This document shows positions 17,254 through 52,551 of a DNA stretch of 64,000 nt, in pieces. The position numbers were made by a program, and so were the translations under genes. A model generated the notes under the pieces. That model was given only the letters and a program-made list of their open reading frames with translations, made no database searches and was not told the origin of the DNA. The stretch comes from Bacilli bacterium (GTDB lineage: Bacteria > Bacillota_I > Bacilli_A > RFN20 > CAG-826). How positions within the stretch are numbered: the stretch's first letter is position 1; the number at the start of each line of letters is the position of its first letter. The DNA lies in NCBI GenBank assembly GCA_024687185.1, contig JAILEX010000048.1:1266-65265 (forward strand), in the 5' to 3' direction.

Positions 17254-17288
17254 GACCCCATCCAACTGTCGGATGGGGTCGATTTTTT
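17254..17288. terminator. Bidirectional intrinsic terminator between convergent genes
   Basis: Perfect 10-bp stem GACCCCATCC / GGATGGGGTC with a 7-nt loop, an A-run upstream and GATTTTTT downstream. Confidence 0.8.
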
Positions 17289-17331: not shown

Positions 17332-18492
17332 CTATTCTGCCTTCTTTTTCTTGCCTAAGGCCGCGAAGCGTTTGCGCTCGATTTCGTAACAGGTTTGGAG
17401 GTCGCCTAGATATAGGGTCCTCATCCTGATGTAGCGTTGCCTTTCCTCCTCGGAGACCGTGGACATATATAGGGTCGTGAAGATCTTCTCAAGGCGGAAG
17501 AAGGATTCGAATAGGCTAAGCAGGGTAAGGGAGAAGAAATAGTTCTTCCGCGAATAGATAAGTAGAGGCGAGCTATGGGCGACTTCGCTAGACATCTCAT
17601 ACACCTTGCTATAGGCGCTAAGCCCGGCGACGCGCTGGACGCCATCGCGGAAATTGAGTTTGACCTCAGGGATCTGATCGACGTTAGGGACGGCAAGGAG
17701 CCAGCCATATTCGATATAGCGCTTCATATCCTTGCTCTTTAGTCCCGCCGCGCGCATGTTCTCCTTGATCTCGACGAAGGTCTCGTCGATCTCTTCCTTG
17801 CTGGGCAAGCCACCGCGGAAGGCGGCCCCATATTTCATGTGGCGGAGATAGCTTTCGATGACGGGTTGGCCGTATTTGACGATGATGGAGAGGATACATT
17901 CGTTCTCGTGCAGGGTCCTCCAGGTGGAGAAGGCCTCGGTCTCATACCCTCCTTCAAGAAGAGAGGAGACGCATTTGGCGATCTGGAAGCCCTTGTTCAT
18001 GATGTCGACGATCAAGGTATTGGTCGGCTCATTCCTCTTATATCTGGACAACATGCCCAAAATGAAGTTCAGGTAGAGGTCAAGCGTGGACATGGTCGGC
18101 GAGAACCTAGAGGTAAGCGAACCCATCTGATAGGCGAGCCTTTCGTTGGTGTAGAACTTATCAAGACTCACAGAGGCGAGGTAATTCTGATAGCCATCCC
18201 TTTCCAAGAAGGCGCCGTCTTTGGCGATGTCTGGATGGGTGGCTAGATAAAAGGAATGCTGATTGACTAGGTACAAGGCGAGCTCAAAGGGGTTGATGGC
18301 CATCCTGGCGATGGTCGGGTTTTCCTGCTGGATCCCCTTTATGCCCTCGGCGATCATGCAGAAGGTCTCGAAAAGGAAATCGTAATTGAGCCCCTGGGGG
18401 ACTTTGATGGAGTAAAGCATCGCCCCGAACTGGTCGCGCGAAATGGAAAAAGGACGCGCGCTATTGATGTCGATTTCCTCTTCTTCGGGCAT
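17332..18492 (-). CDS. Hypothetical protein, last gene of the SWIM-SNF2-addBA operon (possibly DUF5677/AbiV-like helical protein)
   Basis: Long clean ORF. The ATG at 18492 is preceded by GAAGGAG and lies 21 nt after the addA stop. No motif is recognised with certainty; the segment AFSTWRTLHENECILSIIV resembles DUF5677-type helices (from memory, unverified). Confidence 0.6.
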   Translation of the reverse strand: MPEEEEIDINSARPFSISRDQFGAMLYSIKVPQGLNYDFLFETFCMIAEGIKGIQQENPTIARMAINPFELALYLVNQHSFYLATHPDIAKDGAFLERDGYQNYLASVSLDKFYTNERLAYQMGSLTSRFSPTMSTLDLYLNFILGMLSRYKRNEPTNTLIVDIMNKGFQIAKCVSSLLEGGYETEAFSTWRTLHENECILSIIVKYGQPVIESYLRHMKYGAAFRGGLPSKEEIDETFVEIKENMRAAGLKSKDMKRYIEYGWLLAVPNVDQIPEVKLNFRDGVQRVAGLSAYSKVYEMSSEVAHSSPLLIYSRKNYFFSLTLLSLFESFFRLEKIFTTLYMSTVSEEERQRYIRMRTLYLGDLQTCYEIERKRFAALGKKKKAE

Positions 18493-18513
18493 GGTCAAAC
18501 TCCTTCTTCGCCC

Positions 18514-21500
18514 TTAGTCTACTCTATTAACGGCCCCTAGGGTAATGGATAAAAGGTATTTGTCGATCCTTTTGCCCTTAAATACCTTGCTTAGGTATCG
18601 TTCATAGGCCTTAAGTTGGCCTGCGTATAGGCTAGGGTCGATGGTCTTGGTCTTGAAGTCGATTAGGTCGATGTGGTCATCGTAAAGGAGGAACATATCG
18701 ATGATGCCATGTAGGTTTTCCTCCTCGTCGACGAATTCATATTCGTGATATTCCTTTGCCCTAGAAGCATCCTTAAATAAAGGCAAGGAAAGAAGGGACT
18801 CGAACATCCTCTTCTCCTTCTTGTCCTCAATCGGCGGCAAAACCTTCTTGGAGAAGGAAGTGTATTCCATGATCTTATGGAGGCGGTTGCCCCTAACCAA
18901 AATCGCGGGGTCAAGGGGTTCGCTTAGTTCGTGGCTTGCCCTAATAGTGGCTATGGCCTTGCCCTTTTTGCCAACGTTTTCCCTCAATTCCACATAGCCC
19001 TTTCCCTTATGGACGATCTTCGCCGAGGCGTTATCGACCTTCTCCTGGGGAAGGGAGGAGGTATCGAAGCTGGAATCCAAGAACAATCCGCTGCTTAGGA
19101 AGAAGCCCTGGAAGGAATTCGCGTTCTCCACCGAGTATGGGGTGATGTCCTCAAACGTCATCCCCTCCTTTGGCTTACGGTTAAGCAAGACGACCATCTC
19201 CTCGGCGCGGGTGAGGGCGACATAGAATAGCCTCATCCTCTCCGAGACCGATTCGCTGGTCTCATTCGCATAGGAAAGAAGGGAGAGCATACCATCTTCT
19301 TTCGCATTTAGGTCGAGGAAGGCGTTGCCCACTAACCCTAGTTCGCTAGAATAGCAGACGCTTTTGCTTTCCTTGTTGAATTGCCTATATAGCTCAGGGT
19401 AATAGCAAATCGGGAACTGCAAACCCTTCGAGGCATGGTCGCTCATCAAGACGACAGCATCCTTTTCCCTGGCCCCGCCTTCGATCTCTAATTCGATATC
19501 GTTATCCCTAAGCTTATCGAGGTATTCGACGAATTCCCTTAACCCAAAGCCATTGTCCTCTAGGGAAGAGGCGAGATTGGAAAGCTTTTCTATCTTCTGG
19601 AAATTAAGCTCGACGTCCTTTAGTTCCACTAGCCTTTCCATGACTTTGAATTCCTCTATCAAAAGAAGGAAAAGCTCCTCTAGGGTCAAGGAATCTAGCC
19701 TAGAGGCAATATGGGAAAGGGTCTTATGGAAGGGGAAGAAGGAATAGTCGTCATCTTCCTTGACGTGCCCATAGATGTCATAGACCCTATCGTCATCGAT
19801 GGCGAAAAGGAAGCTTCTTGCGATGCCAATATAGGCGCTATCTAGGCTTGCCTTATCCATTTCCCCATACCGCATCCACACCAAAATCCTAAGAAGCGAC
19901 TTAAACACGAGCACCACGTCGTCGTTATCGACCTTATAGCTATCGATGACAGACAAAGGCACCCCTTCTTCCCTAAAGGCGCGGATATATTGGCCAAAGT
20001 CGACTTTTCTCGAAGTCAAAATCGCGAAATCGCCATAGCCGCATTCGTATTTGGTTTCCTTCTTGCCGTCTTTGCTTATCTTCTTCCCTTTTAGCGTAAA
20101 GCCTTCCTTTACCTTCTTCGCGATGTCCCTGGCAATCCATTTGGCCTCGCTAAAGCAGGTCTTTTCGTAGATCACTTCCTCAAAGTTAAGGACGTGGATC
20201 CCGAATTTTTCCCTATTGGAAGTCGCGTCGAAGCCATGGTTGCCAAACCTTAACGCGTGGCCTAGCCGATAATCGACGCCGCCGACATCGCTAGACATTA
20301 TCTTCCCGAAAAGGCGGTTGATATCAGAAAGCACCTCTTCCCTGGAACGGAAATTGTCCGGCAAGGTGATAAGGGTGCCTCCCTTTCCCTTTCCATAATC
20401 CTCCATCTTCTTGGCGAAGACCTTGGGATTGGCCTTACGGAAACGGTAAATCGATTGCTTGATGTCGCCGACCGCGAATACGTTATCGCTACTGACCGCC
20501 TTCAAAAACTCCTCTTGGGCGTTGGAGGTATCCTGGTATTCGTCGACCATGATGTAGCGGTACTTCTTCCTAAACCTTTCCCTGAAGTCAGTGTGGGAAA
20601 GAAGCTCCCTCATTAGCCTTGCCACTCCTTCGAAGTCATAGGAGGAATGCTCCTTCATATAGGCTTCCCTACGCGTATAGACCTCTTTGGCAATCTCCAA
20701 AAAGAAATGCACGTATGGCTTAATTTGGCTTAATTCCGCCTCAATCCCCTCTTTTCCCCTGACCAAAACGGAGAGATAGGGTTTGGCGTCCGCCTTGACT
20801 TTGTTGCGGAGTTTCTTCTCCATCTCGTCTAATCCCTTCGCGGTGATGAACTTCCCTTCGCTTGCGGCTAGTTGCATCGCTTCAAACGTCGGGGCGGAGA
20901 TGATGGAGGAAAGGTAATTCCTGTCGCTACTTTCGGCCTCTGGGTTATTGGGGTATTTGATTAGGGGAAGGAGGCAATTTAGCTTCCTTCTAATCAAAGG
21001 CACATAGGAATTTAGCGCCCTATCGATATAGGCGTCGGAGAAATAGGTTTCCTCATAATTAGAAAAGAAACTATCCTCATCTCCGGATAAAGAGGCGAGG
21101 TTAAGCACGCCTTTGACGATACTGACCAAGGATTCATCGTCTTTGCCGGTGAACCTACGGTAGATATCTAAAAGGAAGGGGTCATGGGTCTTGTTGAATT
21201 CGCTATATCTATAGGCGAGGGACTCGTCGATTAGTTCCCTTGTCTTCACCTCCACAAAGGCGGTATCGAGGATTTTGACTTTGTTTGGAAGGCCTAGTTC
21301 AAAGTGGTTTTCGTTAACCGTCTTCAGGTAGAAGCTATCGAAATTGGTGATGTCGCTTTGCTCGATCTTCTCTAGGTATCCGCTAGTGCAGCTATAGGCG
21401 GCGAGCTTCTCCCTGACCCTGGTCTTCATCTCATAGGCCGCGGCCTTGGTGAAGGTCAGGACAAGGAGTTCGTCAGGGGAACATAGCGGGGAGGCCCCTT

Positions 21501-21747
21501 CTAGGAAGATGGGCTCCCTTAGGGGCTGTCCCTTATCGTCTTTATGGTCGGGGGACCATTCGACGCCATATTCCTTTTTGTAGCTTTCTGCAAAGCCTGG
21601 GTCAAGAGGAGGGACGATCAGCCAATAGACGCGCTCAGTCAAAACCGCGGTCTTGCCACTTCCCGCACCCGCGGAAACCAAACAATTGCCGTCTTTAAAA
21701 TCGATGGCGAGTTGCTGGTTGGGGGTGAATCCGATCGGTTTAGCCAT
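18514..21747 (-). CDS. addA: ATP-dependent helicase/nuclease subunit A (AddA/RexA, UvrD-like plus RecB nuclease)
   Basis: Walker A AGAGSGKTAVL, MVDEYQDTS, and a C-terminal nuclease motif (GIIDMFLLYDDHIDLIDFKT ... QLKAYERYL). The preferred ATG at 21747 (MAKPIGFTPNQQLAIDF) overlaps the addB end by 8 nt. Confidence 0.9.
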   Translation of the reverse strand: MAKPIGFTPNQQLAIDFKDGNCLVSAGAGSGKTAVLTERVYWLIVPPLDPGFAESYKKEYGVEWSPDHKDDKGQPLREPIFLEGASPLCSPDELLVLTFTKAAAYEMKTRVREKLAAYSCTSGYLEKIEQSDITNFDSFYLKTVNENHFELGLPNKVKILDTAFVEVKTRELIDESLAYRYSEFNKTHDPFLLDIYRRFTGKDDESLVSIVKGVLNLASLSGDEDSFFSNYEETYFSDAYIDRALNSYVPLIRRKLNCLLPLIKYPNNPEAESSDRNYLSSIISAPTFEAMQLAASEGKFITAKGLDEMEKKLRNKVKADAKPYLSVLVRGKEGIEAELSQIKPYVHFFLEIAKEVYTRREAYMKEHSSYDFEGVARLMRELLSHTDFRERFRKKYRYIMVDEYQDTSNAQEEFLKAVSSDNVFAVGDIKQSIYRFRKANPKVFAKKMEDYGKGKGGTLITLPDNFRSREEVLSDINRLFGKIMSSDVGGVDYRLGHALRFGNHGFDATSNREKFGIHVLNFEEVIYEKTCFSEAKWIARDIAKKVKEGFTLKGKKISKDGKKETKYECGYGDFAILTSRKVDFGQYIRAFREEGVPLSVIDSYKVDNDDVVLVFKSLLRILVWMRYGEMDKASLDSAYIGIARSFLFAIDDDRVYDIYGHVKEDDDYSFFPFHKTLSHIASRLDSLTLEELFLLLIEEFKVMERLVELKDVELNFQKIEKLSNLASSLEDNGFGLREFVEYLDKLRDNDIELEIEGGAREKDAVVLMSDHASKGLQFPICYYPELYRQFNKESKSVCYSSELGLVGNAFLDLNAKEDGMLSLLSYANETSESVSERMRLFYVALTRAEEMVVLLNRKPKEGMTFEDITPYSVENANSFQGFFLSSGLFLDSSFDTSSLPQEKVDNASAKIVHKGKGYVELRENVGKKGKAIATIRASHELSEPLDPAILVRGNRLHKIMEYTSFSKKVLPPIEDKKEKRMFESLLSLPLFKDASRAKEYHEYEFVDEEENLHGIIDMFLLYDDHIDLIDFKTKTIDPSLYAGQLKAYERYLSKVFKGKRIDKYLLSITLGAVNRVD

Positions 21748-24112
21748 TGTCTTCGCCCCCCATTTCCTCGTCGCTATTCTCAAATTCCTGGCCAAGGTGG
21801 TTTTTAAGCACGTTGAACTGATGGTTCTTCACGAAGCACACCGAGCGATAGGAGCAATATTCGCATCCATCGACCTCGTTCCTTTTCTCATAGCGCTTCA
21901 AAGGATGGACCTTGAAGGCGTTATCGTGGATTAAGGTGTGCGCCTCCATTATCTTGCCTAGGGTCTTCTCCTCGATATCCTTGATTTCCGCAAGGGTGAG
22001 AAGGCCGCGCTTTTTGCCGGTTTCGTCTTCTTTCTTGGAGGGGATCTTGGTATAGGAACCCTTGCCGAGTTCGCCGAATTCGTCGATAGGCTGGATGTCG
22101 TCGAGCATGATGCCGTCTAGACGCAAATCGGTCGCGTATTTGTCGCTTCCTTCCTTCGCCCTCTGCGACTTCGAATAGATGAGTCTGGAGATATAGGCCC
22201 CCGCCAAAACCGATTTGGAATAGGTGGAGTCGCACTTTACCAAAATGGAATAGATGGGGAGCTGGATCTCTAGTCCCACATCGATGTCCTCGGGTTTGAA
22301 TTCCTTGCCATAGGTCTTATAGTCGATGAGGGAAACGAATTCATGTTCCCTACCAAAGAGGATGATCTTATCGGCCTTCCCCTTCACGTAGACCCCCGAG
22401 ATCTCGCTTCCTAGGCTTTTCTCGCAATGGACCTCGATATTCAGGATATGGGACTCCTTCTCCTTGAAGACCCCATACATATTCCTTAAGTCGATGCCAA
22501 TCACGTAAAGCAAGGCCTTTTCTTTCTCGGAGAACGGTTTTTGCTCCTCTTCCTTTTTGACCGCTTCCCCATACGCCTCATCGATATCCAAACCGGGGTT
22601 GGTATAGGCAAGATAAAGCGCGTCGTGGCAGATGTTGCCCACCTTGACGTTGAACCCGCTTTCCTCTATAGGCAAGCGAAGGACGCTACCTAGATAATAG
22701 GCGAAGGGGCATTTGAAATATTCCTCCAATCTAGAGGGGGAATAGGCACGAGGATAAAGGAAGGCCTTCTTCTTATCGCTAAGCGAGAAATCGTTTTCGT
22801 AATGGACGAATGAATCATCGTAATAGGCGTCTAGATAGGGGTTATCCCTTCCATATTGCTCCTTTTTATCCATCATGGCCTGGCCGCGGAGTTTCATATA
22901 TAGGCTGGAATATTCGATTCTAGGTTCCTCGGGGTCGATTAGTTCCATCTTGAATTCCCCTAGTAAGGGAGAGATGTGGCTAACCTCGCCATAATGGGAA
23001 TCATGGAAGCCGATCCATTCGACTTCCCTTTGGGAAAATAGGCCCTTAAGCTCTTCCTTTTCCTCCTTTATGGATTCAACTGGATCCCCTAGGCCGAGTT
23101 CCCTAAGCGAATCCAAGGAGAAATAAGCGGGGTTTCGCGGGGTTTTCGGGGTGGATTCCAAAGAGAAATCCAAATAGAAGACGTGGCTATTCTGCTTCGC
23201 GTAATTCTCTTTTAGTATCCTGACCGCGGGCTTAATGGCCTCTTCGCTTCTAGAGGTGGCCAAAAGCAAATCCCTATATAGGGCAAGCTGGGTTTTCTTG
23301 TCCAAACCGGGGATAAGATAGGTCTTCGCCAAAAGGATGATTTTCCCTAAATCGAGGTCGGCGGCGAAGCCTTCGCTTAGCCTTTCCTTTATCGCCTCTA
23401 GGTCTAGGTTATCCTCGTAAAGGGAAAGGAAGCTTCTTCCTAAGGGGGTGTTATATAGGGGGATCGAGGAAGGGAAGGCGATGGAAAAGCCATACATATT
23501 GGAGAATAGGCTTAGGCAATAATGGTAGGTGGAGGAATAATTGGCGATATAGATGTCCTCCGCGTCTACCCCGTTATATAAAAGCGAGGCGATATGGAGG
23601 CATAGGTCATGGCATTCCGCAATCAGCGAAGGGAAGTGATAAACCTTCTTTTTCTCCTTGCTAGAAGAAAAATAGCAGAGGCATGTATCCAAATTCGCCA
23701 CTCCATCTAGCGCCTTGGCGATGCGGCTAGTGGACTGGTAGCTATCGATAACGATATGCCTATGCTCGAATAGCCTACTGGGCATAAAGTCCTTATAGAG
23801 ATAGCCTAGCCCAATGAGTTCGTTGAAGGTGGGGACCAATTCGGCGAGCTTAGGATCGTTATAGTCCTTGCCCTCTATAAAATAAGAAAAGGCATTTAGG
23901 ATTTCCCTTACCGCCTCTAGCGAATAGCCTTTCTTAAGCAAGTATATCTCCGCCCTATGGTCATAGCGGTAACAGTTCCACTTGAGGAAGTTTTCCTTAT
24001 CGATGAGGGTGAAATCGGTCTCGGGGTATTCCTTTCTATATTCCAAAAGCTCACCCTGACGGGTTCTTGGCGCGATGATCAACGAATTTTCGTAGGTCTT
24101 ACGTCTTTCCAT
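21740..24112 (-). CDS. addB: Helicase/nuclease subunit B (AddB/RexB-type), short form without an obvious Walker A
   Basis: 790 aa from the ATG at 24112 (GGGAGAGG SD). C-terminal RecB-family nuclease (GKADKI...LIDYKT) and Fe-S cysteines (YFKCPFAYY ... CEYCSYRSVC). Located upstream of addA as in Bacillota. Confidence 0.8.
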   Translation of the reverse strand: MERRKTYENSLIIAPRTRQGELLEYRKEYPETDFTLIDKENFLKWNCYRYDHRAEIYLLKKGYSLEAVREILNAFSYFIEGKDYNDPKLAELVPTFNELIGLGYLYKDFMPSRLFEHRHIVIDSYQSTSRIAKALDGVANLDTCLCYFSSSKEKKKVYHFPSLIAECHDLCLHIASLLYNGVDAEDIYIANYSSTYHYCLSLFSNMYGFSIAFPSSIPLYNTPLGRSFLSLYEDNLDLEAIKERLSEGFAADLDLGKIILLAKTYLIPGLDKKTQLALYRDLLLATSRSEEAIKPAVRILKENYAKQNSHVFYLDFSLESTPKTPRNPAYFSLDSLRELGLGDPVESIKEEKEELKGLFSQREVEWIGFHDSHYGEVSHISPLLGEFKMELIDPEEPRIEYSSLYMKLRGQAMMDKKEQYGRDNPYLDAYYDDSFVHYENDFSLSDKKKAFLYPRAYSPSRLEEYFKCPFAYYLGSVLRLPIEESGFNVKVGNICHDALYLAYTNPGLDIDEAYGEAVKKEEEQKPFSEKEKALLYVIGIDLRNMYGVFKEKESHILNIEVHCEKSLGSEISGVYVKGKADKIILFGREHEFVSLIDYKTYGKEFKPEDIDVGLEIQLPIYSILVKCDSTYSKSVLAGAYISRLIYSKSQRAKEGSDKYATDLRLDGIMLDDIQPIDEFGELGKGSYTKIPSKKEDETGKKRGLLTLAEIKDIEEKTLGKIMEAHTLIHDNAFKVHPLKRYEKRNEVDGCEYCSYRSVCFVKNHQFNVLKNHLGQEFENSDEEMGGEDNG

Positions 24113-24128
24113 CGATATGTCCTCTCCC

Positions 24129-27100
24129 TTAGGACAATAAGAAGCGGATATCCTCATCGGAGAGTTTGCGGATCAAGGAATCGCCTTCTTTGATGAGGGA
24201 ATCGCTGAGGTCTTTTTTGGCCTCTTGCAATATTAACACCTTTTCCTCGATCGAGTTATGGCAAACGAGTTTGTAGACGCTGACGGGACGGGTCTGTCCG
24301 ATGCGGTAACTCCTATCGGTGGCCTGCTCTTCCGCGGCGGGGTTCCACCATGGGTCTAGGTGGATGACGATGTCGGCGCCGATAAGGTTTAGCCCCGTGC
24401 CGCCGGCCTTAAGTGAGACTAGCATCACCTTGAAATGGTCGGTGGAATTGAATTCCTCGGCCAAAAGAAGGCGTTCCTGCGCTGGGGTGGAACCGGAAAT
24501 CGTCCTGGAATCGATGTCGCATTCCCTTAACGCGAGCTCCATGTTCTCCAAAACCTTGGTGAAGCTAGAGAAGATAAGCAATTTATGCCCAGAGGCGATC
24601 GCGGTCTCGGCGAGGCTAGTGACGTATTCGAATTTGGTCGAGATCTCGGTGAAGTTATCGAAGAAAGAGCCGGGATCGACCGCGATTTCGCGTAGCTTCG
24701 TAAGGATTGGGAAGATCGATAGGCGATTCTTCTCCTCGCTTTTCTCGTTCTCCTCGATCTCCTTCCTGGCCTCAAGAAGGCTTGCCTCATAGAATTCGCT
24801 TTGGTATTCGTTCATGGCGAGGGTGATGGTCTCCACCGACTTGATGGGCAGATCCTTCAATACCTGCGACTTGCTCCTCCTCAAAATGAAGGGGGTGATC
24901 CTCTTAAGGAGTTTATCCCTGGCGGAAGAAGAATCCGCGTCGATATATTGCTGCTTGAATTCCTCGTAGCTTAAAAGGTAGCCGGGCATTAGGAAATCGA
25001 AGATCGACCATAGGTCTAGAAGCGAGTTCTCGATTGGGGTGCCGGTTAGGGCGAAGCGGATATCGCTTTTTAAGGTCTTCACGGCCTTGGCCTTTTTGGA
25101 AAGGGAATTCTTGATGAACTGGGCCTCGTCGGCGAGGACGACGCCGAAATGGACCTTGGAGAATTCCTCGATGTCGTTGCGAAGGGAATCGTAGCTTACG
25201 ACATAGATGCCCCTTTCCCTCTTCTTTATATTAGAAAGGATGCCAAGCCTAGTTTCCTTGCTGCCCGCGACGACGCAGACGGGCATATCGGGGTTCCATT
25301 TATGGACTTCGCTTTCCCAGTTATAGGTGACCGATTTGGGGCAGATGACCAAAGTCGGGCGGGAATCGCCCCTGCCAGAGAGGAAGGCGATGGCCTCTAG
25401 TGTCTTCCCTAAGCCCATATCGTCAGCGAGGATGCCGCTAAGGCCATAGCCAGACAAGACGCTCATCCACTGGATGGCCTCCTTTTGGTAGGGACGGACC
25501 ACCTCTTGGATGGCTTGGGGCAACAAGATCTTCTTCTTGGTGTAATTGCGGATCGAGTCGATGGCCTCGATGACGTAGTCGGAAAGGTTAAGGCCAACGT
25601 GGGTGATGGAGGCGCTAGCGAGCTTAAAGGCGTTATAGAAGGGCAGCTTATCGGTATAGAGCTCGTCTTTGATGCCAACTTCCCTTTGGATGAGGGCGGC
25701 CTCATGGACATAGGGGTCCTCCAAGACGATGATGTCATCCCCTAGCCTTACGTAGCGGTGCTTCTTCTTATACTGGGAGAGGATGAGCTTTAGGGTATCG
25801 TCATCGTAATGGGCGGAAGAGATCCTAAGCTCGAGCCAGTTCTGCGCGTTTTTGTTGATGACCACGTCTATCGGGCCAACGCGTTTGATGTTAAGCCTGG
25901 AGATCGCCTCGGATAGGTAGACCGAGCAGATGGAACGGAGTTCGCTTAGGTCGCCAGAGAGGAAATGGAGGATATCGCCTTCATCCCTCACCGCGCCTGA
26001 AATAACCCCGCCTAAGTGGCTTAGAATAGAGGCATAACGGTTTAGCTTCTCCCTGTAATAGAGGTTTTCGCGGAGTTTCTCCATCGTCTCCTCGTGCCCG
26101 TTTAGATGGCAGATCGTGGAGAAGAGCAAGATCCCCCTTTCGCTCATGTCGACGTAGAGGGAAATCTGCATCGAATCGGTGATCTCCCCTCCTTCTTCCA
26201 TGGGAAGCGCGTCTTCTGGGGGGACATAGGATTGGACTAGGTCCTTGATGAGGTCGGTCTCGTTGGAGCCATGGTTCCTATAGAAGAGGAAGAGGTCCGC
26301 GGAAAGCGGCTTTTTGAAGGTAAAGAGCTCGCAGACGAAATTGCTCTTATCGAAGCAAGCCAAACTTGAGCCGGATAATAGAAGCGTCGAATTGGAAGGC
26401 GGCGCGGGGAAGAAATGCAGGCTTTCGTCGGGCGAGAACCTAAACCCGGCCGCGCCGACTTTATCTAGAATAAGGTAATCCTTGCCCTCGAAGTTGACGT
26501 TTTCTCCCTTAAGCGCGAAAAGTAAGGACACCACGTCGCTTTTTACTAGTACCGAGGCCTCTTTCCTAAAGTGGATCCTAGAGAGGTAATAGTCCAATGC
26601 GGCCTTGGTGGATTCATCGAAGTTCTTCCTGCTCACATCGATCCTAAGCCCGCCGCGGATGGAATAGATGGAGCCGTTTTCATAGGCGTTTAGGAAGGAA
26701 TTGTTGCTTCTGACTAGGCCTAGCCTTTCCTTGCCATCCATTAGGACGAGCTTAAGCGAATAGGATTCCTCGCCATAGTAGTTATAGCCTTGCTCGAAGG
26801 AGAAGGAGACCTTGAGCTCGTTTTGTACCTCATAGGTGGGGGCGCTGGAGGTGATGGAAGAGTATTTCCAGTCGAATAGCGCGATGAATTCCCTTCTTAC
26901 CGAGGCGCGGCGGTCTAGTTGCCTGGGGGTAAGAGAAAGCAAAGAGACGAGTTTTTCATAGTCTTCCCCATATACTTCCTTCTGGCGGTTTTCCTCCACT
27001 AGGCGCTTTTCCCTATCATAAAGGTATAAACAGGCCCCACCATAATTGAAGGGGGGTTCATGGTAGGCGAGGGAAAGATATTCCTCGGGCACCATGATAT

Positions 27101-27308
27101 CGCCTTTGGCGTTGACCGAGACCGAGATGTAGTTATCCCCTTCCGGGTCGATGAATTCATAGATGAGGCTATCGTCGGCCTCCTCGAAATGGTAGAAGAC
27201 GAAATAGCCGCCTTCTTGGATTTCCCTTGCGAAATTGACGCAGTTGTTCCTGGCGCGGAAGGATTCGATGAGGGCTTCGGTCTTTTGGGATTCCCTGGTG
27301 AAATACAT
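24129..27308 (-). CDS. SNF2-family helicase/translocase with a ~590-aa N-terminal extension (SNF2-associated-type region)
   Basis: Motifs ILADDMGLGKTLEAIAF, LADEAQFIKN, LTGTPIEN and GGTGLNLIGADIVIHLDPWWNPAAEEQATDRSYRIGQ. I prefer the ATG at 27308 (AAGGAAGGAAAGGG upstream); the track start at 27356 lies inside the SWIM gene. Confidence 0.9.
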   Translation of the reverse strand: MYFTRESQKTEALIESFRARNNCVNFAREIQEGGYFVFYHFEEADDSLIYEFIDPEGDNYISVSVNAKGDIMVPEEYLSLAYHEPPFNYGGACLYLYDREKRLVEENRQKEVYGEDYEKLVSLLSLTPRQLDRRASVRREFIALFDWKYSSITSSAPTYEVQNELKVSFSFEQGYNYYGEESYSLKLVLMDGKERLGLVRSNNSFLNAYENGSIYSIRGGLRIDVSRKNFDESTKAALDYYLSRIHFRKEASVLVKSDVVSLLFALKGENVNFEGKDYLILDKVGAAGFRFSPDESLHFFPAPPSNSTLLLSGSSLACFDKSNFVCELFTFKKPLSADLFLFYRNHGSNETDLIKDLVQSYVPPEDALPMEEGGEITDSMQISLYVDMSERGILLFSTICHLNGHEETMEKLRENLYYREKLNRYASILSHLGGVISGAVRDEGDILHFLSGDLSELRSICSVYLSEAISRLNIKRVGPIDVVINKNAQNWLELRISSAHYDDDTLKLILSQYKKKHRYVRLGDDIIVLEDPYVHEAALIQREVGIKDELYTDKLPFYNAFKLASASITHVGLNLSDYVIEAIDSIRNYTKKKILLPQAIQEVVRPYQKEAIQWMSVLSGYGLSGILADDMGLGKTLEAIAFLSGRGDSRPTLVICPKSVTYNWESEVHKWNPDMPVCVVAGSKETRLGILSNIKKRERGIYVVSYDSLRNDIEEFSKVHFGVVLADEAQFIKNSLSKKAKAVKTLKSDIRFALTGTPIENSLLDLWSIFDFLMPGYLLSYEEFKQQYIDADSSSARDKLLKRITPFILRRSKSQVLKDLPIKSVETITLAMNEYQSEFYEASLLEARKEIEENEKSEEKNRLSIFPILTKLREIAVDPGSFFDNFTEISTKFEYVTSLAETAIASGHKLLIFSSFTKVLENMELALRECDIDSRTISGSTPAQERLLLAEEFNSTDHFKVMLVSLKAGGTGLNLIGADIVIHLDPWWNPAAEEQATDRSYRIGQTRPVSVYKLVCHNSIEEKVLILQEAKKDLSDSLIKEGDSLIRKLSDEDIRFLLS

Positions 27309-27330
27309 GTCTATTCCCTTTCCTTCCTTT

Positions 27331-28797
27331 TTATTCGCGATAAAGCTTGCAGCCAAGCTTATCGAGCAGGTTGTTCTTATAGGCTTCCACTAGTATTTTG
27401 CCCCTAAGCACGGGGTCTTCCGCGGCCACTTCCAAGACAAGGGGGTTCACGATGATCTTGCCCAGTTCGTAACGACCGAATTTGCCATAGATCCTCAATA
27501 GCGTCCTAAAGGCCTCCTGCTTCTTCTCAAGGTTACGGAGTATCTCCCTTTCCTCTTCCTTCCCGTAGTCGAGGAATTGCTGAATGATGGCGTCTTCCTC
27601 CACCTTATCCACGGCAAAGCCAAGGAGCTCGAAGGGGACGTTCCTGACGTCAAGGCTATCGTAGATGTCGCCTACTTTCCCCCTACCCTCGCAAGCCATG
27701 ATGAAATCCTTGGTTGGGCTTTCTATCTCCTCGATATGGCCTAAGAACCTCTTCTCGAAGTCATCGTCGACGGCCACGCTTTTCCAAAGGAGGTATTTCT
27801 CGCAGCTAGGCTGCAAGGAGAATTCGTCATAGAAGATCGATTCCAGCTTTTCCCTATGTTCCTCCGAGGCCATCAAGGTCGTCAAAACGGAGGGGTCCAA
27901 TAGGAAGCCATCGTAATATCTGACCGCGGTGCGGAAAAGCTCGATGGTGATGTCTAGGTTCTTCTTGGCTTCCGATGATTTGATTAGGGCCGCCATATCC
28001 TCTTCCTTTAGGTGGAAGGAAGGGCTGTTGAGGAGTTCCTCAAGCAATTCTGGATCCACGCAGGCCCAGGAGGTAAGCGGGGCGAAGCTAGAGAGATGAT
28101 GGGGCTCATGGTAGCCTTCCTTCATCCTCTTCGCGGCCGCGATCTGGAAGGGGAGGCAGCTTTCGCCCTCCTTGGTCATGATGGTCCAAAGGGCGTCGCT
28201 ATTCATATGGTCCTTCAATAGCTCGTAGTAAAGCTCGACCATCTCGTCCCTTTCGAATTCGCCTTTGCGGAGAATCTCCCTGATATAGGGGGTGAGCCTA
28301 TCGTAGTCGATCGGGTACTTGCCCCTAGAAAGGAAGGACTCGAACAACGTCTTCACGCCCTTGGCCCTACCCTCTTTGCAGGCTTTGGGAAGAAGCGAGA
28401 TGAAGACCTCCATCGCCTTGGATAGGCCTTTGTAATTGAAGCGGAAGACGGAATTCTTGATATCCTCTACGGCACTGACAAGGGCATTGCCCTTTTCTCC
28501 TTCCTCTTCCTTGCTTTCCGCATTAGATCCTAGGGCGAATTGATCGCTAATCTCATATAGGGTCGCGACCATGTGTTTGCAAAAGCCGCCCTCCCCGCAG
28601 GTGCAGGTGGCGGAGATGAGGTCATGCTCGGGGTCGAACTGCAGTTTTACCTCATAATGGCTACCGCCATAGACGGTCGCGATGGCCGAGGTTGGGGAGA
28701 GCGAGGAAAAATGGACTCTTTTCTCCTTGTAGTAGGTCCTACCCTTTTGGATGATCTTGGAGTCAAACAGCTCAAGGTTATCGAGATAATTAGACAT
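27331..28797 (-). CDS. SWIM zinc-finger protein
   Basis: N-terminal GRTYYKEKRV...VYGGSHYEVKL...CTCGEGGFCKHMVATLYEI (the CxCxnCxH SWIM motif), followed by a ~400-aa helical region. The ATG is at 28797; the TTG at 28800 in the track is one codon upstream. Confidence 0.8.
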   Translation of the reverse strand: MSNYLDNLELFDSKIIQKGRTYYKEKRVHFSSLSPTSAIATVYGGSHYEVKLQFDPEHDLISATCTCGEGGFCKHMVATLYEISDQFALGSNAESKEEEGEKGNALVSAVEDIKNSVFRFNYKGLSKAMEVFISLLPKACKEGRAKGVKTLFESFLSRGKYPIDYDRLTPYIREILRKGEFERDEMVELYYELLKDHMNSDALWTIMTKEGESCLPFQIAAAKRMKEGYHEPHHLSSFAPLTSWACVDPELLEELLNSPSFHLKEEDMAALIKSSEAKKNLDITIELFRTAVRYYDGFLLDPSVLTTLMASEEHREKLESIFYDEFSLQPSCEKYLLWKSVAVDDDFEKRFLGHIEEIESPTKDFIMACEGRGKVGDIYDSLDVRNVPFELLGFAVDKVEEDAIIQQFLDYGKEEEREILRNLEKKQEAFRTLLRIYGKFGRYELGKIIVNPLVLEVAAEDPVLRGKILVEAYKNNLLDKLGCKLYRE

Positions 28798-28971
28798 CAA
28801 TACAATATTACTTGTTTTCTTGACAAAGTAAAAAGAAAATTTGATTTTCGCGAAATCTTTTTTTGCCCATAAGGAAACACAAAAAGGGAAAAAGATGGAA
28901 AAACGTCTAATTGTTTCGATGAACGCCTAATTATTTTTCTTTTTCTAGGAAACTTGCCTAGCCACCTCCTC

Positions 28972-28993
28972 CTAGGTATCGATACTAGGTATC
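28972..28993. repeat. Direct repeat CTAGGTATC-GATA-CTAGGTATC containing the palindrome GTATCGATAC
   Basis: Read directly from the sequence, about 175 nt upstream of the SWIM gene start in a 292-bp intergenic region. Confidence 0.5.
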
Positions 28994-29044: not shown

Positions 29045-29074
29045 GAAAAAGCCGAACCGCACAGGCGATTCGGC
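29045..29074 (-). terminator. Intrinsic terminator after glpK
   Basis: The minus strand reads GCCGAATCGCC-TGT-GCGGTTCGGC followed by TTTTTC. Confidence 0.65.
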
Positions 29075-44839: not shown

Positions 44840-47800
44840 ATGAAAGGAAATTCCAAGAAGGCGGCAAAGGCCGCCGCCGCAGGAGTCAAAGCGGCCCACA
44901 AAGTCCGCAACGGCATCATCGTTGGGGCCAGCATGTTCGGTTTGTTCGCCGGCAGCGCCGCCACGACCTTCTTCACCACCGAAGGCAAGGTCACGGTCAT
45001 CGACTTAAGGGACGAAGAAGGTGGGGAACCCACCCTTCTTACCGGTAAGGACCGCTTCATCTCCAATTTGGCAAGCAGCGCAACCACCGGTCTAAATATC
45101 TCCGTCACCGACCTTAAGCTAGACCAATATTACGTCGATAGCGAAGGAAATGAGGACACAAGCAAAGGACATAACACCATCACCAATGGCAAGACGACCT
45201 CGGGCGAATCCGCGCCCATCTCGATCGCCTTGAAGATGGATGAGCTCTCCCTACATGGCATTAACCTTGCCCTAACCGCGCCGATTGCCTATAGCAACAA
45301 TGGAAGCAACGCCAAATACCGTGGCGTGCACGCGTCCCTACTTCCCTATGCCTTCGATGGCGAAAACGATGAGCAAACCCTCTTCGTCAACCTCTTCGAT
45401 AACGGCAATGACGTCTTTAGTGAGGACGAAGACGGCAATACGGTGGTCAGCCAATCTAGCGGAGGCAGTTGGAACTTCAAATACCGCGTTGGCGTCGATA
45501 GCAAGGATTCGACCTACTTCGATAGCGAGGCCAACGTCACCGATGCGACCACCCGCGGCACCGAATACTATGAATATGGCGAACTCGACTGGTTCCTCGC
45601 CGATATCCTCGATATCCTCTCCGAAGGCGCCATCAGCGTCGATTTCGGCGACATGATAAACGACCTTTTCTCCAAGGAAACCACCAATAACGCAAACGCC
45701 AACACCCAAGCGGCCGCCACCGAAACCACGGGCGGGGATTCCTCCAACGAGGAAACTAGCGATAGCACCCCAAGCGGCATCTCCATCGATGACATCATGG
45801 CCTCGATGGGCGAGATGCAGGATGTCGGCACCGAAGAAGCCCCCTACTTCGTCTGGGAACTCCCCCTTGGCGATAAGACCTTGGTGCTGGGGATGGGTGG
45901 CGATAGCGAATATAACCTCTCCTCCGTCGATTTGCCCGCCAAAGCCGTCAAGGGCGAAGATGGGACCTATACCCTATCCACCTCCAGCGTGGACCCCTGG
46001 AAGATCCAAGACGGATTGACCTTGTCCGCCCACGCCGATATCAATGGCAACCTCCCCTCCTCTTGGGCGAGTCAGGTCTATGGTAACGTAAGCGACTATA
46101 AAAAGCTCACCGATAGCGCCGCCATGTTCAAGCGCATCGCCAAGGCCGTCGCCTCCCCCGAACTCGGCGTGGACGCCTCCTTCACGATCGGCCATAACGA
46201 GGACGCCGTCGAAGGAAGCCGCACCGTCTTAAGGAAAGACGCCGTCTCCGAGGCATTGAAAATCGACCTTAGCGCCGGACTTGACCTATATGATGACGCC
46301 AATAAGGCCTACGCCCTAGAAGGCATCGACGTCGACTTGAAGATCGACCAGGTCCGCGAATCGACCGACTTCAAAGGACATGAGATCCAGGTCGCCTATT
46401 TAAAAGAGGACGCGGACGCGGAGGTAAGCGCATATAACGCCTACGTCAACGTCAACGACGTGCTTCTTGCCAAAACCAGCAAAACCTACCTCGATGAGCT
46501 CATCACCGACGTCAAGGAATCCACCTTCTTCTCCTCTTCTAGCGAAGACAATCAAAGCGATGGCGTTAGCCTCGATTCCTTCCTTGACCTATTGGGCGAC
46601 GATATCAACGCCATCTTGGATAGCGATTTGGTTAACGGCATCAAATCCGGTTCCTATACCGCAATCGCCGATCTCATCTCCTCTATTGAGGCCAACGACA
46701 ATAACATCACGGTCACCCTCTCTTTGGCGCCACTAGGATTAAATGGCGGCACCATCTCGCTAGTCATCGATGGCGCAACCGACGATAACGGCAACTACAC
46801 CAATAGCCTAGTCGAACTTAGCATCGCTAACGTCAATTTCGGCAATTTCTCCCTTAATGGCACCCTCGAAGTCGATGGCCTTAGCCGCGAAGTCAAGGCA
46901 TTAACCGCCCCGGAAGGCAAAGCGTTTGAAAGCCTAAGCCACGTCAGGGGCATCTTCGGCACCGTCGAGAAGATCGCCGATAGCAAATCCTTCTCCGCCT
47001 CGATTTCTGGCGCCGCCTATAAGGAAGATGGCACCACCAAGAGCATGGAGATCGTCGATAGCGGCCTAGCCTTCAACTTCAACGAAGGCAAGACCTCTGG
47101 CAAAGTCAACGTCGAACTAGACACCTATGGAGACGTCAACCAGCAGCATAACATCAAACTGGGCCTAGACAACATGGACGTCGTTAGCCTAGACGAGAAC
47201 AATAACGAAGTGACCACCAACGACAAGGTCATCGGATTCTCCTATGATTCCAAGTCCACCAAGGAGAACTTCGTCAGCCAGTCTAGCGACAAAGCGGTTT
47301 CCGGCAGGGTTGGGCTCAATTCCGCCAAAACCGCATTGGACAACATCGATTTGGGCAACCTCCTCTCCTTCTTCTCCGATGACGATAGGTTCTCTCGCCT
47401 ATCAAGCGCCCTATTGAAGGAAGAATCCGGTTCGCTTTTAAGCGATTTGATGTCTGGCAAATATTTCGGACTATTCGAAAAACAGGGCCTTATCTCGAGC
47501 CTTTCCTTAGGAAGCACCACCGACTTGACCATCGATGCCAGCAAACTTGGCATGGAAGGCACCACGATCGACCTCTCCCTCTCCTATCTTGCCAACACCG
47601 AATCCGTCGATGAGGACAATAACGCCTCGATCGTCGAAGGCGGATTAGACGCCTTAAACCTCGTCATCAAGAAAGACGGCGTCAAATCCTTTGAGGTGAA
47701 GGTAGATGAAATCGATACCCTAGAGGACACCTCCACCAAGGTCGCTTCCTTCGCCGACATCACTTCCCTCGATGACTTCACCCCGATCGTCGACCTAGCC

Positions 47801-51900: not shown

Positions 51901-52551
51901 ACGACCACCAGAAGGGTCGATGGCAGCGACTTCTCCGCGAATATGCTCGATTGGCTGTCCTATATCTTCTATTTCGGCGACACCATCACCGAACATCTGG
52001 ATAACGATTCCTCCTCCTCTAGCAGCGAAGCGCTCCATGGCGAAGACCTGATCAAGGGCTTCTCCACCACCGGAAGCTACGCCAACCCCTATTGGAACCT
52101 CACCGTCGACATCGGTTCCGTTTTGCCTTCCTCCTTGGAAAGATGGCTAAGCTTTGAACAGACCACCGTCACTATCGGCGGCTCCACCGTCAGCTATAGC
52201 AATGCCGGCAAATCATACGAGAAACAAACCCTTTCTAGTTTGGACACCACGCTTAAGATCAAGTTGCTTGGCGCAAGCTGGCTTTCGATTGAAGCCAAGG
52301 TCGACATCGACATGAAAAACGCCGCCAATAACGTCTATACCGACGCCTGGAACAGCGGCTCCACCTGCGCCTATTACATGACCTCCACCGCCCATAAGAT
52401 ACTCGGCGCCACCATCTGGACCGACTATGACCTACATACCGACCACACGGGCACCCCTTCCGCCATCTTCTCTGGGCAATATGGCAAGTCCACTTCCAAC
52501 TCGACCTATAACTCCACGCCCTACTACGTGACCCCCGACACCTTGGCCTAA
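48991..52551 (+). CDS. Giant (1186 aa) acidic lipoprotein, unknown family (paralog B)
   Basis: Lipoprotein signal MSLPLILGSFLLSC. It shares ordered sequence blocks with 44840-48898: DELSLHGI, TTRGxxYYEYGxLD[WY]F, H[NK]EDAVEGS, D[DP]RF[SK]RL. Confidence 0.7.
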   Translation: MFQSLAKMSLPLILGSFLLSCAYLHAPTQEENVEPVSETLSKETISKQLSSIVKSGLRLDMSSLKVAIPSKIETVDNVLDFSGAHAKLRVDELSLHGIEAEIAADLDYNGVNKDVDFLLSDEELYFSLVDHANLDGFRFKSSIKSYDESDGGYDETTRGVLYYEYGSLDYFLYSVFESFDLPSISLDLSSNGESASIDFSSIADATNSIEQIDAHTFKLSLPVGEETLPIGLYSDSEGTLSKIGFPYGQDEYEFSNGVKVSFLGEVSTFSEAFTLPYEESQYLNLSDSLELIKDIGSKITNKKFGVEANLNVYHKEDAVEGSEELFSRDALEESATLTANVDVDLSESYHDLTAAVALSSSSSSETIDLHIDDDSGTANCYFDFNSGVLKGFSSVSAFSSLWNALSTLMSNEDIQNNEIMALLSGLLATSDSISAAIDGVKTSAVGTAISEGHYEGILNAIDHIAHEDNKIVIDLDLSHAGGSGSARIVLDSNATNLLEVTLDNAGIVTTTSPALSLLVSGSVILRDYELHSFDASSYEGKEYRHLPSLASSLEKFAGSDQLSADISGYMIQKGTTAVTSYTLPSWDGNSTFASTGFSFSGSLGFDLEEKTGAGKMTFVDRKEGYFNDHNIYVDVTGGEGENDTNEKDFSGNEGDIGETGYMLAQYDSKNADTSNSSEKRTNPNDDSSPIKGRFSIHSLDNVLDSVAELLSSTDPRFKRLTNLFNGVMNESIISSIIDGYYLKALSEGFFESSYISDNGITIVAREGFIYSGYELSIRVSFGEDYLDEEGVTQPGKIKTLEILSQNKDASDGTDIYAKIELHSASFPNDDIGFNFINKDANGSYSWKSGHSLSEFTSFSSIGNLVNFLLDTITLGTTDSSTVTTYHLHLYVDLDVPLISSLDTTIEADFYIYLDGTNVKILGNLHYEKSKFLAWGIIDKEAYVNIFYETSGEDSDGDLYITRSVPDDSEMTTTRRVDGSDFSANMLDWLSYIFYFGDTITEHLDNDSSSSSSEALHGEDLIKGFSTTGSYANPYWNLTVDIGSVLPSSLERWLSFEQTTVTIGGSTVSYSNAGKSYEKQTLSSLDTTLKIKLLGASWLSIEAKVDIDMKNAANNVYTDAWNSGSTCAYYMTSTAHKILGATIWTDYDLHTDHTGTPSAIFSGQYGKSTSNSTYNSTPYYVTPDTLA

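Follow-up and report, generated by a model that had tools for sequence, protein, structure and literature searches.

A SWIM-SNF2 gene pair joined to compact addBA genes in one small lineage of uncultured Bacilli: a likely composite of independent modules

We analyzed a 64,000-nt stretch of apparently chromosomal DNA (hereafter the window) from an uncultured gut/rumen bacterium, presumably one of the reduced-genome Bacilli (RFN20/CAG-826-like), and found in it an array of five genes in which a SWIM zinc-finger gene and an SNF2 ATPase gene are followed by a compact addB-addA pair and a DUF5677 gene (Table 1). Comparison with about 180 related loci indicates that the join between SWIM-SNF2 and addBA arose once, in one small lineage. 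The reading that we favor, with moderate confidence, is a composite operon of independent modules, co-transcribed and probably leaderless, the products of which would have no direct mechanistic coupling.

Table 1. Features of the five-gene array and its borders (window coordinates)
Feature	Position	Strand	Description
SWIM gene	27331-28797	minus	488 aa; PF04434
SNF2 gene	24129-27308	minus	1059 aa; Pfam SNF2_assoc, SNF2-rel_dom, Helicase_C
AddB-like gene	21740-24112	minus	790 aa; PDDEXK_1
AddA-like gene	18514-21747	minus	1077 aa; UvrD helicase domains
DUF5677 gene, last in unit	17332-18492	minus	386 aa; PF18928
AddA clade-specific insertion	21472-21615	minus	residues ~45-92; between Walker A helix and motif Ia
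Probable -10 element TAATAT	28805-28810	minus	7 nt 5' of SWIM ATG
Bidirectional intrinsic terminator	17254-17280	both strands	12-bp stem, 7 GC pairs, T-runs on each strand
glpK terminator	29051-29074	minus	10-bp stem, 7 GC pairs, then TTTTTCTTTT

Organization and transcription of the array

The array lies among glpK, pepP, a PRK-domain gene and the ATP synthase operon. Read from the sequence, its successive gaps are 22, 16, -8 and 21 nt. The SWIM/SNF2 spacer carries GGAAGGAAAGGG; the SNF2/addB spacer has a Shine-Dalgarno sequence (GGGAGAGG) as its sole content; addB and addA overlap over positions 21740-21747; and the addA/DUF5677 spacer carries GAAGGAG. An earlier note on this DNA had given the same gene calls, spacings, overlap and terminator at 17254, and all of its coordinates agree with our reading. 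That terminator closes both the five-gene unit and the convergent PRK-domain gene, and the one at 29051-29074 separates the unit from the upstream glpK. In a scan between the two we found no terminator-like match at any junction, as the earlier note had claimed; the minus-strand matches are weak and all within coding sequence (23 terminator-like matches observed in the region, 15.7 +/- 4.0 expected from shuffles). The five genes probably form one co-transcribed operon.

A -10-like hexamer is located exactly 7 nt upstream of the ATG of the SWIM gene (MSNYLDNL) in all five lineages that carry the array: TAATAT in the window, L002 and L092, TATAGT in L001 and TATGAT in L178. This ATG has no Shine-Dalgarno sequence. 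Given the position of the hexamer and the missing Shine-Dalgarno sequence, translation of this first cistron probably starts on a leaderless transcript. SOS control was considered and rejected: no Cheo/LexA box is found upstream of the operon, and the 38 matches across the window are at chance level (29 +/- 5.5 expected).

The array might instead comprise two units: addBA-DUF5677, read from a promoter of its own within the SNF2 3' end, and SWIM-SNF2, on a separate, abutting transcript. We consider this very unlikely. Outgroup addB genes begin about 50-106 nt after glpK, where a promoter of their own is possible, and non-canonical internal promoters escape consensus scans; but our scan revealed no promoter-like minus-strand site near 24113-24400, the SNF2/addB junction has neither a terminator nor anything besides its Shine-Dalgarno sequence, and comparably short spacers are seen in the remaining four lineages.

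The compact AddB-AddA pair

The AddB-like protein exhibits a PDDEXK_1 domain (89 bits), and its residues C468, C750, C753 and C759 as well as the DYKT motif (597-600) are invariant in 11 homologs of 21-54% identity. Searched against the PDB, the profile of this family matched only B. subtilis AddB (3u44_B residues 768-1133, E-value = 1e-27). The best fold matches of its AF2 model are likewise AddB chains (E-value = 1.6e-19), with AdnA and UvrD also matched. Its N-domain keeps an SF1-like fold from which about 330 aa have been trimmed, and the Walker A motif GxxGxGK[ST] is absent from both the window protein and the consensus of the 11-sequence family. At 790 aa it is about 370 aa shorter than B. 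subtilis AddB (1166 aa), in which Walker A is present. It shares with the latter the SF1-like N-domain and, as predicted from these residues, a C-terminal PD-(D/E)XK nuclease with a four-cysteine Fe-S site. The Chi-recognition region of AddB presumably falls within the trimmed part.

The AddA-like protein matches PF00580 with 164 bits, and its best PDB match is AddA (3u44_A, E-value = 1.6e-42). GSGKT, DEYQDT, VGDIKQSIYRFR and the other helicase motifs are invariant in nine sequences, as are D1017, D1030, K1032, Q1044 and Y1048 of a RecB-type nuclease motif (GIIDMF...DLIDFKT...QLKAY); Pfam PDDEXK_1 was not detected in this protein. The combination of a UvrD-type motor with a RecB-type nuclease is that of B. 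subtilis AddA, than which the window protein is about 155 aa shorter. It also exhibits an insertion of about 40 aa after the Walker A helix, with the motif VPPLD..F...Y....G..W.PD...P.F. The insertion is present at 10 of 10 SWIM-SNF2 loci, representing five lineages, whereas all 110 outgroup AddAs lack it. This surface insertion could mark a new protein contact.

Adjacent, overlapping genes with addB before addA are also the arrangement of B. subtilis AddAB (3u44/4ceh), and the addB-addA order is kept in nearly all of 91 loci examined, the exceptions being contig-end truncations. Neither protein reaches its equivalog threshold (AddB-like, TIGR02773, 45.1 bits against a cut-off of 903.7; AddA-like, TIGR02785, 350.9 against 707.65). 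The names addB and addA given in the earlier note are therefore right as to kind, the closest PDB sequences and folds being B. subtilis AddB and AddA, although the proteins are a sub-threshold variant and not canonical AddAB. From these comparisons we take the pair to be a genuine but compact AddAB. It would resect double-strand ends, AddA contributing the motor and one nuclease, and AddB the Fe-S nuclease and a degenerate N-domain without ATP binding.

The SWIM-SNF2 pair

The SNF2 protein exhibits SNF2_assoc (PF08455, 67 bits) at residues 427-594, SNF2-rel_dom (221 bits) at 607-879 and Helicase_C (74 bits) at 893-1004. These positions bear out a non-helicase N-terminal region of about 590 aa, as had been proposed. 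SNF2_assoc is matched in its C-terminal half alone (profile positions 192-370 of 373), and Pfam gave nothing for the first ~425 aa. By sequence, the closest PDB entry is the Rad54-like SNF2 core of Sulfolobus (1z63, E-value = 4e-80). The protein scores below every NCBIfam equivalog cut-off. The highest-scoring model, NF053675 (429.4 bits against a cut-off of 1100, residues 442-1058), represents the pneumococcal pilus-repressing Snf2 of Basset et al. 2017 (PMC5512219, as quoted in PMC8465756); the window protein differs in that the N-terminal 440 aa are uncovered and there is no pilus locus here.

The SWIM domain (PF04434) was recognized at residues 48-82 with 26.2 bits, above its cut-off of 19.6. 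The protein is poorly conserved, with just 23-79% identity among clade members, and its N-terminus is homologous to those of the fused SWIM-SNF2 proteins P0159 (E-value = 1e-11) and P0229 (E-value = 1e-6). That SWIM and SNF2 are a recurring pair holds beyond the clade: outgroups carry it (L181, L183), and such fusions in relatives are single proteins of 1440-1580 aa. From its Pfam architecture, we take the window pair to resemble B. subtilis YwqB-YwqA. In both, the gene directly upstream of the SNF2 ATPase gene encodes a SWIM zinc finger, and the N-terminal region of the ATPase includes SNF2_assoc; unlike that type, the window pair runs straight into addBA. YwqA itself is a poorly characterized SNF2 protein, listed among the RNAP-interacting translocases relevant to replication-transcription conflicts (PMC7385302). 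The module would act as a dsDNA translocase, remodeling proteins bound to DNA or stripping them off.

A word-index search with the SNF2 protein was swamped by generic SNF2 cores; an exhaustive search with the N-terminal 590 aa reached the outgroups. A metagenome scan with the SNF2 N-terminal alignment gave no match, its patterns being probably too clade-specific, and no close relative was found among viral contigs. Recent horizontal transfer of SWIM-SNF2 is unsupported on this ground and because neither GC3 nor codon usage departs from the average of the genome. LAHS01, which may not be one genome, exhibits a locus with addBA only (L116) and a separate SNF2 fragment (P0149).

The DUF5677 gene

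The earlier note called the trailing gene unknown. Its size was given correctly, but the protein matches DUF5677 (42.6 bits against a cut-off of 27.1, residues 164-312) and so is not wholly unknown. About 1986 homologs were found, the best 120 of which are all at least 58% identical. The AF2 model is all-helical (pLDDT 86.8), and neither a sequence nor a fold relative was found in the PDB. In the B. subtilis addB-addA-sbcD-sbcC operon, the metallophosphoesterase SbcD and the SMC-like ATPase SbcC are encoded downstream of addA, where DUF5677 is found here; the protein has no Metallophos or SMC match in Pfam. The earlier note had placed it in the slot of sbcDC; an sbcDC-like accessory role is contradicted by its location: DUF5677 sits between glpK and the PRK gene whether addBA is present or absent, persisting there in 33 loci without addBA. 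Since it is anchored to the glpK/PRK neighborhood, stays where addBA is missing and has no relative in the PDB, we reject the view that DUF5677 assists AddAB or stands in for sbcDC.

A single origin of the join

Five species-level lineages carry the five-gene array (the window, L002, L092, L001/L093-95 and L178-180), so that the adjacency extends beyond this genome. Carriers are monophyletic in a simple NJ tree of two proteins, DUF5677 and PRK, which points to a single insertion event. None of the 69 scorable sister loci contains SWIM-SNF2; all have DUF5677, mostly with glpK and PRK flanks. Between glpK and DUF5677, addBA is present in 36 complete loci (plus eight cut by contig ends), basal branches included, and absent in the 33 loci mentioned above; an AddB remnant is still present in L113. 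SWIM-SNF2 is also absent from 80 of 80 compact-addBA loci of GTDB species genomes, found with an AddB pattern that misfits the window's own CEYCSYRSVC and may miss its nearest GTDB kin. The nearest outgroup SNF2 relatives that we looked up are all three paired with SWIM in other contexts, without addBA. The earlier note had named a comparative outcome that would refute its reading, an adjacency unique to one genome together with a pair normally located elsewhere; the uniqueness is not what we observe, and a location elsewhere is what the nearest outgroups exhibit.

The ancestral order was presumably glpK-addB-addA-DUF5677-<PRK. SWIM-SNF2 would have been inserted between glpK and addB in the common ancestor of the clade, bringing or acquiring the leaderless promoter from which addBA and DUF5677 would have been read since. 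The adjacency has survived divergence down to 50% identity in SNF2, 31% in AddB and 23% in SWIM; SNF2-addB spacers range from 14 to 52 nt across the clade; and the array is intact in L178 despite a changed upstream flank (no glpK). These observations, like the confinement of the AddA insertion to the carrier clade, count against a reading as independent modules. Tight packing, on the other hand, is generic in these genomes. The unrelated glpK overlaps addB by 1 nt in L003, and glpK/DUF5677 spacing is -41 to +33 nt in many loci. The "welded" appearance of the genes, which had been taken as a functional sign, loses its force accordingly.

Do the modules work together?

The step from adjacency to joint function, made in the earlier note, is not supported: the carriers are one clade with one insertion, and the pair is missing from sister loci that share the flanks. 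A join with a single origin in a small lineage is weak evidence for proteins working together. A functional coupling, with the SNF2 motor and its SWIM partner as accessory factors of the compact AddAB, is unlikely. In that case the two might remove RNA polymerase or nucleoid proteins from the path of the resecting enzyme, or direct it to breaks or to foreign DNA, perhaps by docking on the AddA insertion. The insertion is one lead in favor of such coupling, and the array is kept in all five lineages with short SNF2-addB spacers and terminator-free junctions, even where the upstream flank differs; but adjacency and insertion are one event each, a correlation with n = 1, and retention of the array needs no selection, since the background synteny (glpK...DUF5677-PRK-ATP synthase) persists among far more distant relatives. 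The loss of Walker A from the AddB family makes an extra motor conceivable, yet compact AddAB has no neighboring SWIM-SNF2 in at least 110 other loci, the outgroup pairs lie away from addBA, and glpK is packed just as tightly onto addB and DUF5677. The listing of YwqA with RNAP-interacting translocases is a further point in favor of coupling. Our literature search found nothing connecting SWIM-SNF2 with AddAB, and no mention of PF08455. Eukaryotic SNF2 remodelers Fun30/SMARCAD1 promote end resection, in a nucleosomal setting that bacteria lack. SWIM-domain recombination factors are represented by Shu2/SWS1 of the Shu and SWS1 complexes (PMC11876325, PMC8275761). The window genes share these SNF2 ATPase and SWIM zinc-finger families and adjoin a DSB-resection enzyme, a likeness by analogy alone. 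Quite unlikely, in our estimate, is the stricter proposal that in this clade the pair has become an accessory motor dedicated to a minimal AddAB, docking on the AddA insertion and clearing DNA-bound proteins during resection or foreign-DNA degradation.

An anti-phage or anti-plasmid system, in which the SNF2 helicase and the helicase-nuclease sense and degrade foreign DNA in the manner of ZorD, DrmD or DpdE, is most improbable. The SNF2 core does match the PADLOC models of DpdE (E-value = 1e-118) and ZorD (E-value = 1e-110), AddA matches GajB-type UvrD models and SWIM weakly matches PDC-S62, but PADLOC matches are confined to generic helicase cores, and the NCBIfam scores are far below their cut-offs (ZorD 226 against 1500, DrmD 87 against 950, DpdE 34 against 500 bits). 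Partner genes of Zorya, DISARM and Dpd are absent nearby, where the neighbors are housekeeping genes. The array holds the same housekeeping position in every carrier, and one lineage has it unchanged in 23 contigs, unlike a variable island; the viral contigs, as noted, gave no close relative. A study of defense in Enterococcus included DUF5677 in its nine candidate ORFs, but not in the five that it reported active (PMC12632615). We therefore rejected the defense reading on account of its core-only, sub-cut-off matches, the housekeeping context and the fixed position. The composite operon of a SWIM-SNF2 module, a compact AddAB module and, as third module, the conserved DUF5677 protein remains the reading that we prefer.

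Biological implications

Operon packing alone is no sign of shared function in compact genomes, and the present array calls for caution in this respect. DUF5677 stands out as a very conserved protein without known fold relatives, and repeated losses have removed addBA from what is a fixed position on the chromosome. If coupling were true, it would offer the first functional handle on bacterial SWIM-SNF2 pairs of the YwqA/YwqB type, which are widespread but orphan; an accessory motor would be the first case in bacteria of remodeler-assisted resection of the Fun30/SMARCAD1 kind. The compact AddAB family, whose AddB has about 790 aa and lacks Walker A, appears to serve many uncultured reduced-genome Bacilli of the gut and rumen.

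Organization of the five-gene unit

The five ORFs proposed in the earlier note were all recovered at exactly the claimed positions. The gene spacing that it claimed is also borne out by reading the sequence: a 22-nt spacer containing GGAAGGAAAGGG separates SWIM from SNF2, a 16-nt spacer containing GGGAGAGG separates SNF2 from addB, addB and addA overlap by 8 nt, and a 21-nt spacer containing GAAGGAG precedes the DUF5677 gene. The claimed absence of hairpins between the genes was likewise confirmed, a scan of the window having found no terminator-like match at any junction of the unit and only weak minus-strand ones inside its coding sequences; the terminator placed at 17254 is a strong bidirectional hairpin. 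Pfam domains back the assignment of SWIM, addB, addA and an SNF2 protein with a long non-helicase N-terminus (helicase core beginning at residue 607). The trailing gene is in place with its 386 aa, but it is not entirely "unknown", since it belongs to a recognised Pfam family, DUF5677. The flanks are of the housekeeping type: an Impact_N-family gene, pepP, glpK, a convergent PRK-domain gene and the ATP synthase operon. Elsewhere in the window lie two adjacent, very large ORFs of 1352 and 1186 aa without Pfam match at E<=1e-4; near the corresponding region of relatives, one locus (L007) exhibits a 2485-aa ORF also lacking Pfam matches.

Features of the unit and of related loci (positions in the window unless a relative locus, L, is named)
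Feature	Position	Strand	Remarks
SWIM	27331-28797	-	488 aa; Pfam SWIM finger
SNF2	24129-27308	-	1059 aa; Pfam SNF2_assoc, SNF2, Helicase_C
AddB-like	21740-24112	-	790 aa; Pfam PDDEXK_1
AddA-like	18514-21747	-	1077 aa; Pfam UvrD helicase
AddA insertion (~40 aa)	21472-21615		residues ~45-92; VPPLD..F...Y....G..W.PD...P.F
DUF5677 gene	17332-18492	-	386 aa; Pfam DUF5677
Strong bidirectional hairpin	17254-17280	both	closes the five-gene unit
Strong hairpin	29051-29074		terminates glpK, upstream of the unit
-10-like hexamer region	28798-28810		also upstream of SWIM in L001, L002, L092, L178
Short direct repeats	28902-28936 and 28972-28993		5' of SWIM
Large ORF	44840-48898	+	1352 aa
Large ORF	48991-52551	+	1186 aa
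AddB remnant	L113, 9261-9656
Outgroup SWIM-SNF2 and downstream run	L181, 5403-14521
Outgroup SWIM-SNF2 and downstream run	L182, 383-9500

In each of the five lineages that carry the array, a -10-like hexamer (TAATAT in three, TATAGT and TATGAT) lies exactly 7 nt 5' of the SWIM ATG, and no Shine-Dalgarno sequence precedes SWIM. These features suggest that the first cistron is leaderless, as the mRNA itself probably is, and that the promoter belongs to the inserted pair. Since neither a promoter-like site nor a terminator was found by scanning the SNF2/addB junction, we infer that all five genes are likely co-transcribed. No LexA box was found upstream of the unit, and SWIM and SNF2 do not differ from the genome average in codon usage. 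Within the 290 nt 5' of SWIM, AACGYCTAATTRTTT occurs as two copies 20 nt apart and CTAGGTATC as two copies 13 nt apart; these short direct repeats might serve as operators, but are poorly conserved in the upstream regions of relatives.

Single origin of the array

About 180 relative loci were retrieved, seeded with AddB, SNF2 and DUF5677 homologs. Among them, five species-level lineages have the complete SWIM-SNF2-addB-addA-DUF5677 array: that of the window, taken as reference, and those of L002, L092, L001/L093-95 (23 contigs) and L178-180, with SNF2 proteins 90%, 71%, 64% and 50% identical to the reference, respectively. The SNF2-addB spacers range from 14 to 52 nt across these carriers, addB and addA overlap or abut in all of them, and the block is still intact in L178, where the upstream flank is different and lacks glpK. 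In a neighbor-joining tree of concatenated DUF5677 and PRK sequences, the smallest clade uniting the window with L178 consists of carrier loci only, indicating that the array arose once.

All sister loci lack SWIM-SNF2 within 10 kb. The order glpK-addB-addA-DUF5677, followed by the convergent PRK gene, is found in 36 sister loci, basal branches included, with 8 more ending at contig edges. In 33 loci glpK and DUF5677 are not separated by addBA, the gap being -41 to +33 nt within one deep clade and 180-1046 nt in scattered tips; one of the addBA-less loci, L113, retains an AddB fragment. Several independent disappearances of addBA from this interval are apparent (L100, L113, L118, L128, L133, L136, L137, L145-L172). 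The ancestral order was likely glpK-addBA-DUF5677 with convergent PRK; addBA would then likely have been lost or relocated repeatedly, and SWIM-SNF2 would likely have been inserted, once, between glpK and addB. The adjacency to addBA, for which the earlier note had proposed a neighbourhood analysis, does recur, in five lineages, but with one origin and in one small clade. Of what that note regarded as counter-evidence, an adjacency unique to this genome and a pair normally located elsewhere, the first does not hold, and the nearest outgroup pairs are indeed located elsewhere.

SWIM-SNF2 outside the clade

An exhaustive HMMER search with the N-terminal 590 aa of the SNF2 protein retrieved only 154 representative clusters. 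The nearest outgroup SNF2 relatives are 37-39% identical over their full length, and none of the nearest outgroup SWIM-SNF2 pairs (L181, L182, L183) adjoins addBA. Downstream of the pair, L181 and L182 share a conserved run of a lysyl-phosphatidylglycerol-synthase-like gene, a glycosyltransferase, a RecX-like gene and an OB+HD (YhaM-like) exonuclease-like gene; SWIM-SNF2 therefore has a RecA regulator and a gene of exonuclease-like type in its vicinity, though not next to it. In L183 the pair lies within a sugar-metabolism cluster. Some relatives (P0159, P0209, P0229, P0238 and similar proteins, 1440-1580 aa) have the SWIM N-terminus fused to SNF2_assoc and SNF2. By the Rosetta-stone principle these fusions are good evidence that SWIM and SNF2 act together; they say nothing on AddAB. 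Bacillus subtilis YwqA is described as an SNF2 ATPase that interacts with RNAP and is poorly characterised, and no more (PMC7385302). The NCBIfam family nearest to the SNF2 protein is a pneumococcal pilus repressor (PMC8465756), the window protein falling below its cut-off. No link between the SWIM-SNF2 pair and AddAB was found in the literature.

DUF5677 and the compact AddAB

For DUF5677 there are about 1986 homologs, of which the best 120 are at least 58% identical, with the invariant motifs ETEAFS.WRT.HENE and EMSSE.AHSSP (window and L096-L175). The gene is fixed between glpK and the convergent 550-aa PRK-domain gene with or without addBA; its persistence where addBA is gone shows that it is no partner specific to AddAB. 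The AF2 model of the protein is confident (pLDDT 86.8) and all-helical, and no fold or sequence relative was found in the PDB. One homolog, 63% identical, carries the name of 'Candidatus Enteromonas', which is genus UBA733 of GTDB, in family CAG-826 and order RFN20, and has genomes of some 1.2 Mb (PMC8035907). The window thus probably derives from a reduced-genome lineage of this type.

AddA and AddB are genuine, though atypical. AddA retains all SF1 motor motifs and the C-terminal RecB-type nuclease motif, and by sequence its closest match in the PDB is B. subtilis AddA (E-value = 1.6e-42). AddB keeps the nuclease motif and four Fe-S cysteines, invariant in 11 homologs at 21-54% identity; its family profile matches only B. 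subtilis AddB in the whole PDB, at the nuclease domain (E-value = 1e-27). The protein falls about 370 aa short of B. subtilis AddB in length and has no Walker A motif. The top fold matches of its AF2 model (pLDDT 73.7) are AddB chains (E-value = 1.6e-19), then AdnA and UvrD/PcrA, indicating that the N-terminal half is still SF1-like. Against the NCBIfam equivalogs, AddB scores 45 bits (cut-off 904) and AddA 351 bits (cut-off 708).

A scan of the genome collection revealed at least 392 compact AddB relatives among GTDB species genomes. The best 80 of these all come from gut and rumen MAGs of uncultured Bacilli, 'Tenericutes', 'Erysipelotrichaceae' or 'Mollicutes', nearly all with addB followed by addA. 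The family (window and L004-L091; AddB of ~770-810 aa without Walker A and with the Fe-S nuclease intact, AddA partner of ~1010-1100 aa) is widespread in MAGs of uncultured reduced-genome Bacilli. Both genes have a GC3 of 0.63-0.64, below the ~0.70 of their neighbours, and evolve much faster than their flanks: within the clade AddAB is 31-60% identical, versus 69-83% for DUF5677 and 78-95% for GlpK and PRK.

A probable composite operon

The unit is probably a composite operon: independent modules, transcribed together, that a single insertion joined in one small clade. The modules would be the SWIM-SNF2 remodeler pair, the compact AddAB end-resection enzyme and DUF5677. Separate transcription units are quite unlikely in view of the SNF2/addB junction, devoid of promoter-like site and terminator. 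A defence system is very improbable, as the matches are sub-threshold and limited to cores, and the context is fixed and housekeeping.

A true functional coupling of SNF2/SWIM to AddAB, as the earlier note had deduced from adjacency, is rather unlikely. Packing is equally tight where glpK meets addB (1-nt overlap in L003) or overlaps or abuts DUF5677 in relatives. To our knowledge, glycerol kinase has no plausible functional tie to either; tight packing here does not imply shared function. Moreover, the surrounding gene order is kept among loci much more diverged than the SNF2 clade, with DUF5677 identities as low as 45%, so that a neutral adjacency, made once, is expected to persist. The step from adjacency to joint function is therefore not supported, given the single origin, the sister loci without SWIM-SNF2 and such packing between unrelated genes; the outgroup pairs in other contexts also argue against coupling. 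The single observation in its favour is an insertion of 34-46 aa between the Walker A helix and motif Ia of AddA, present in 10/10 carrier loci (5 lineages) and in 0/110 outgroup AddAs, of which 105 have a spacing of 31-32 aa. However, the insertion and the adjacency fall on the same single branch, so that as a correlation they amount to a sample of one.

The gene order is new and its component parts are of known kinds. The AddA insertion could be a new protein-contact surface, gained along with the new neighbours. If it were true that this insertion is the docking site of SNF2/SWIM, the finding would be much weightier.
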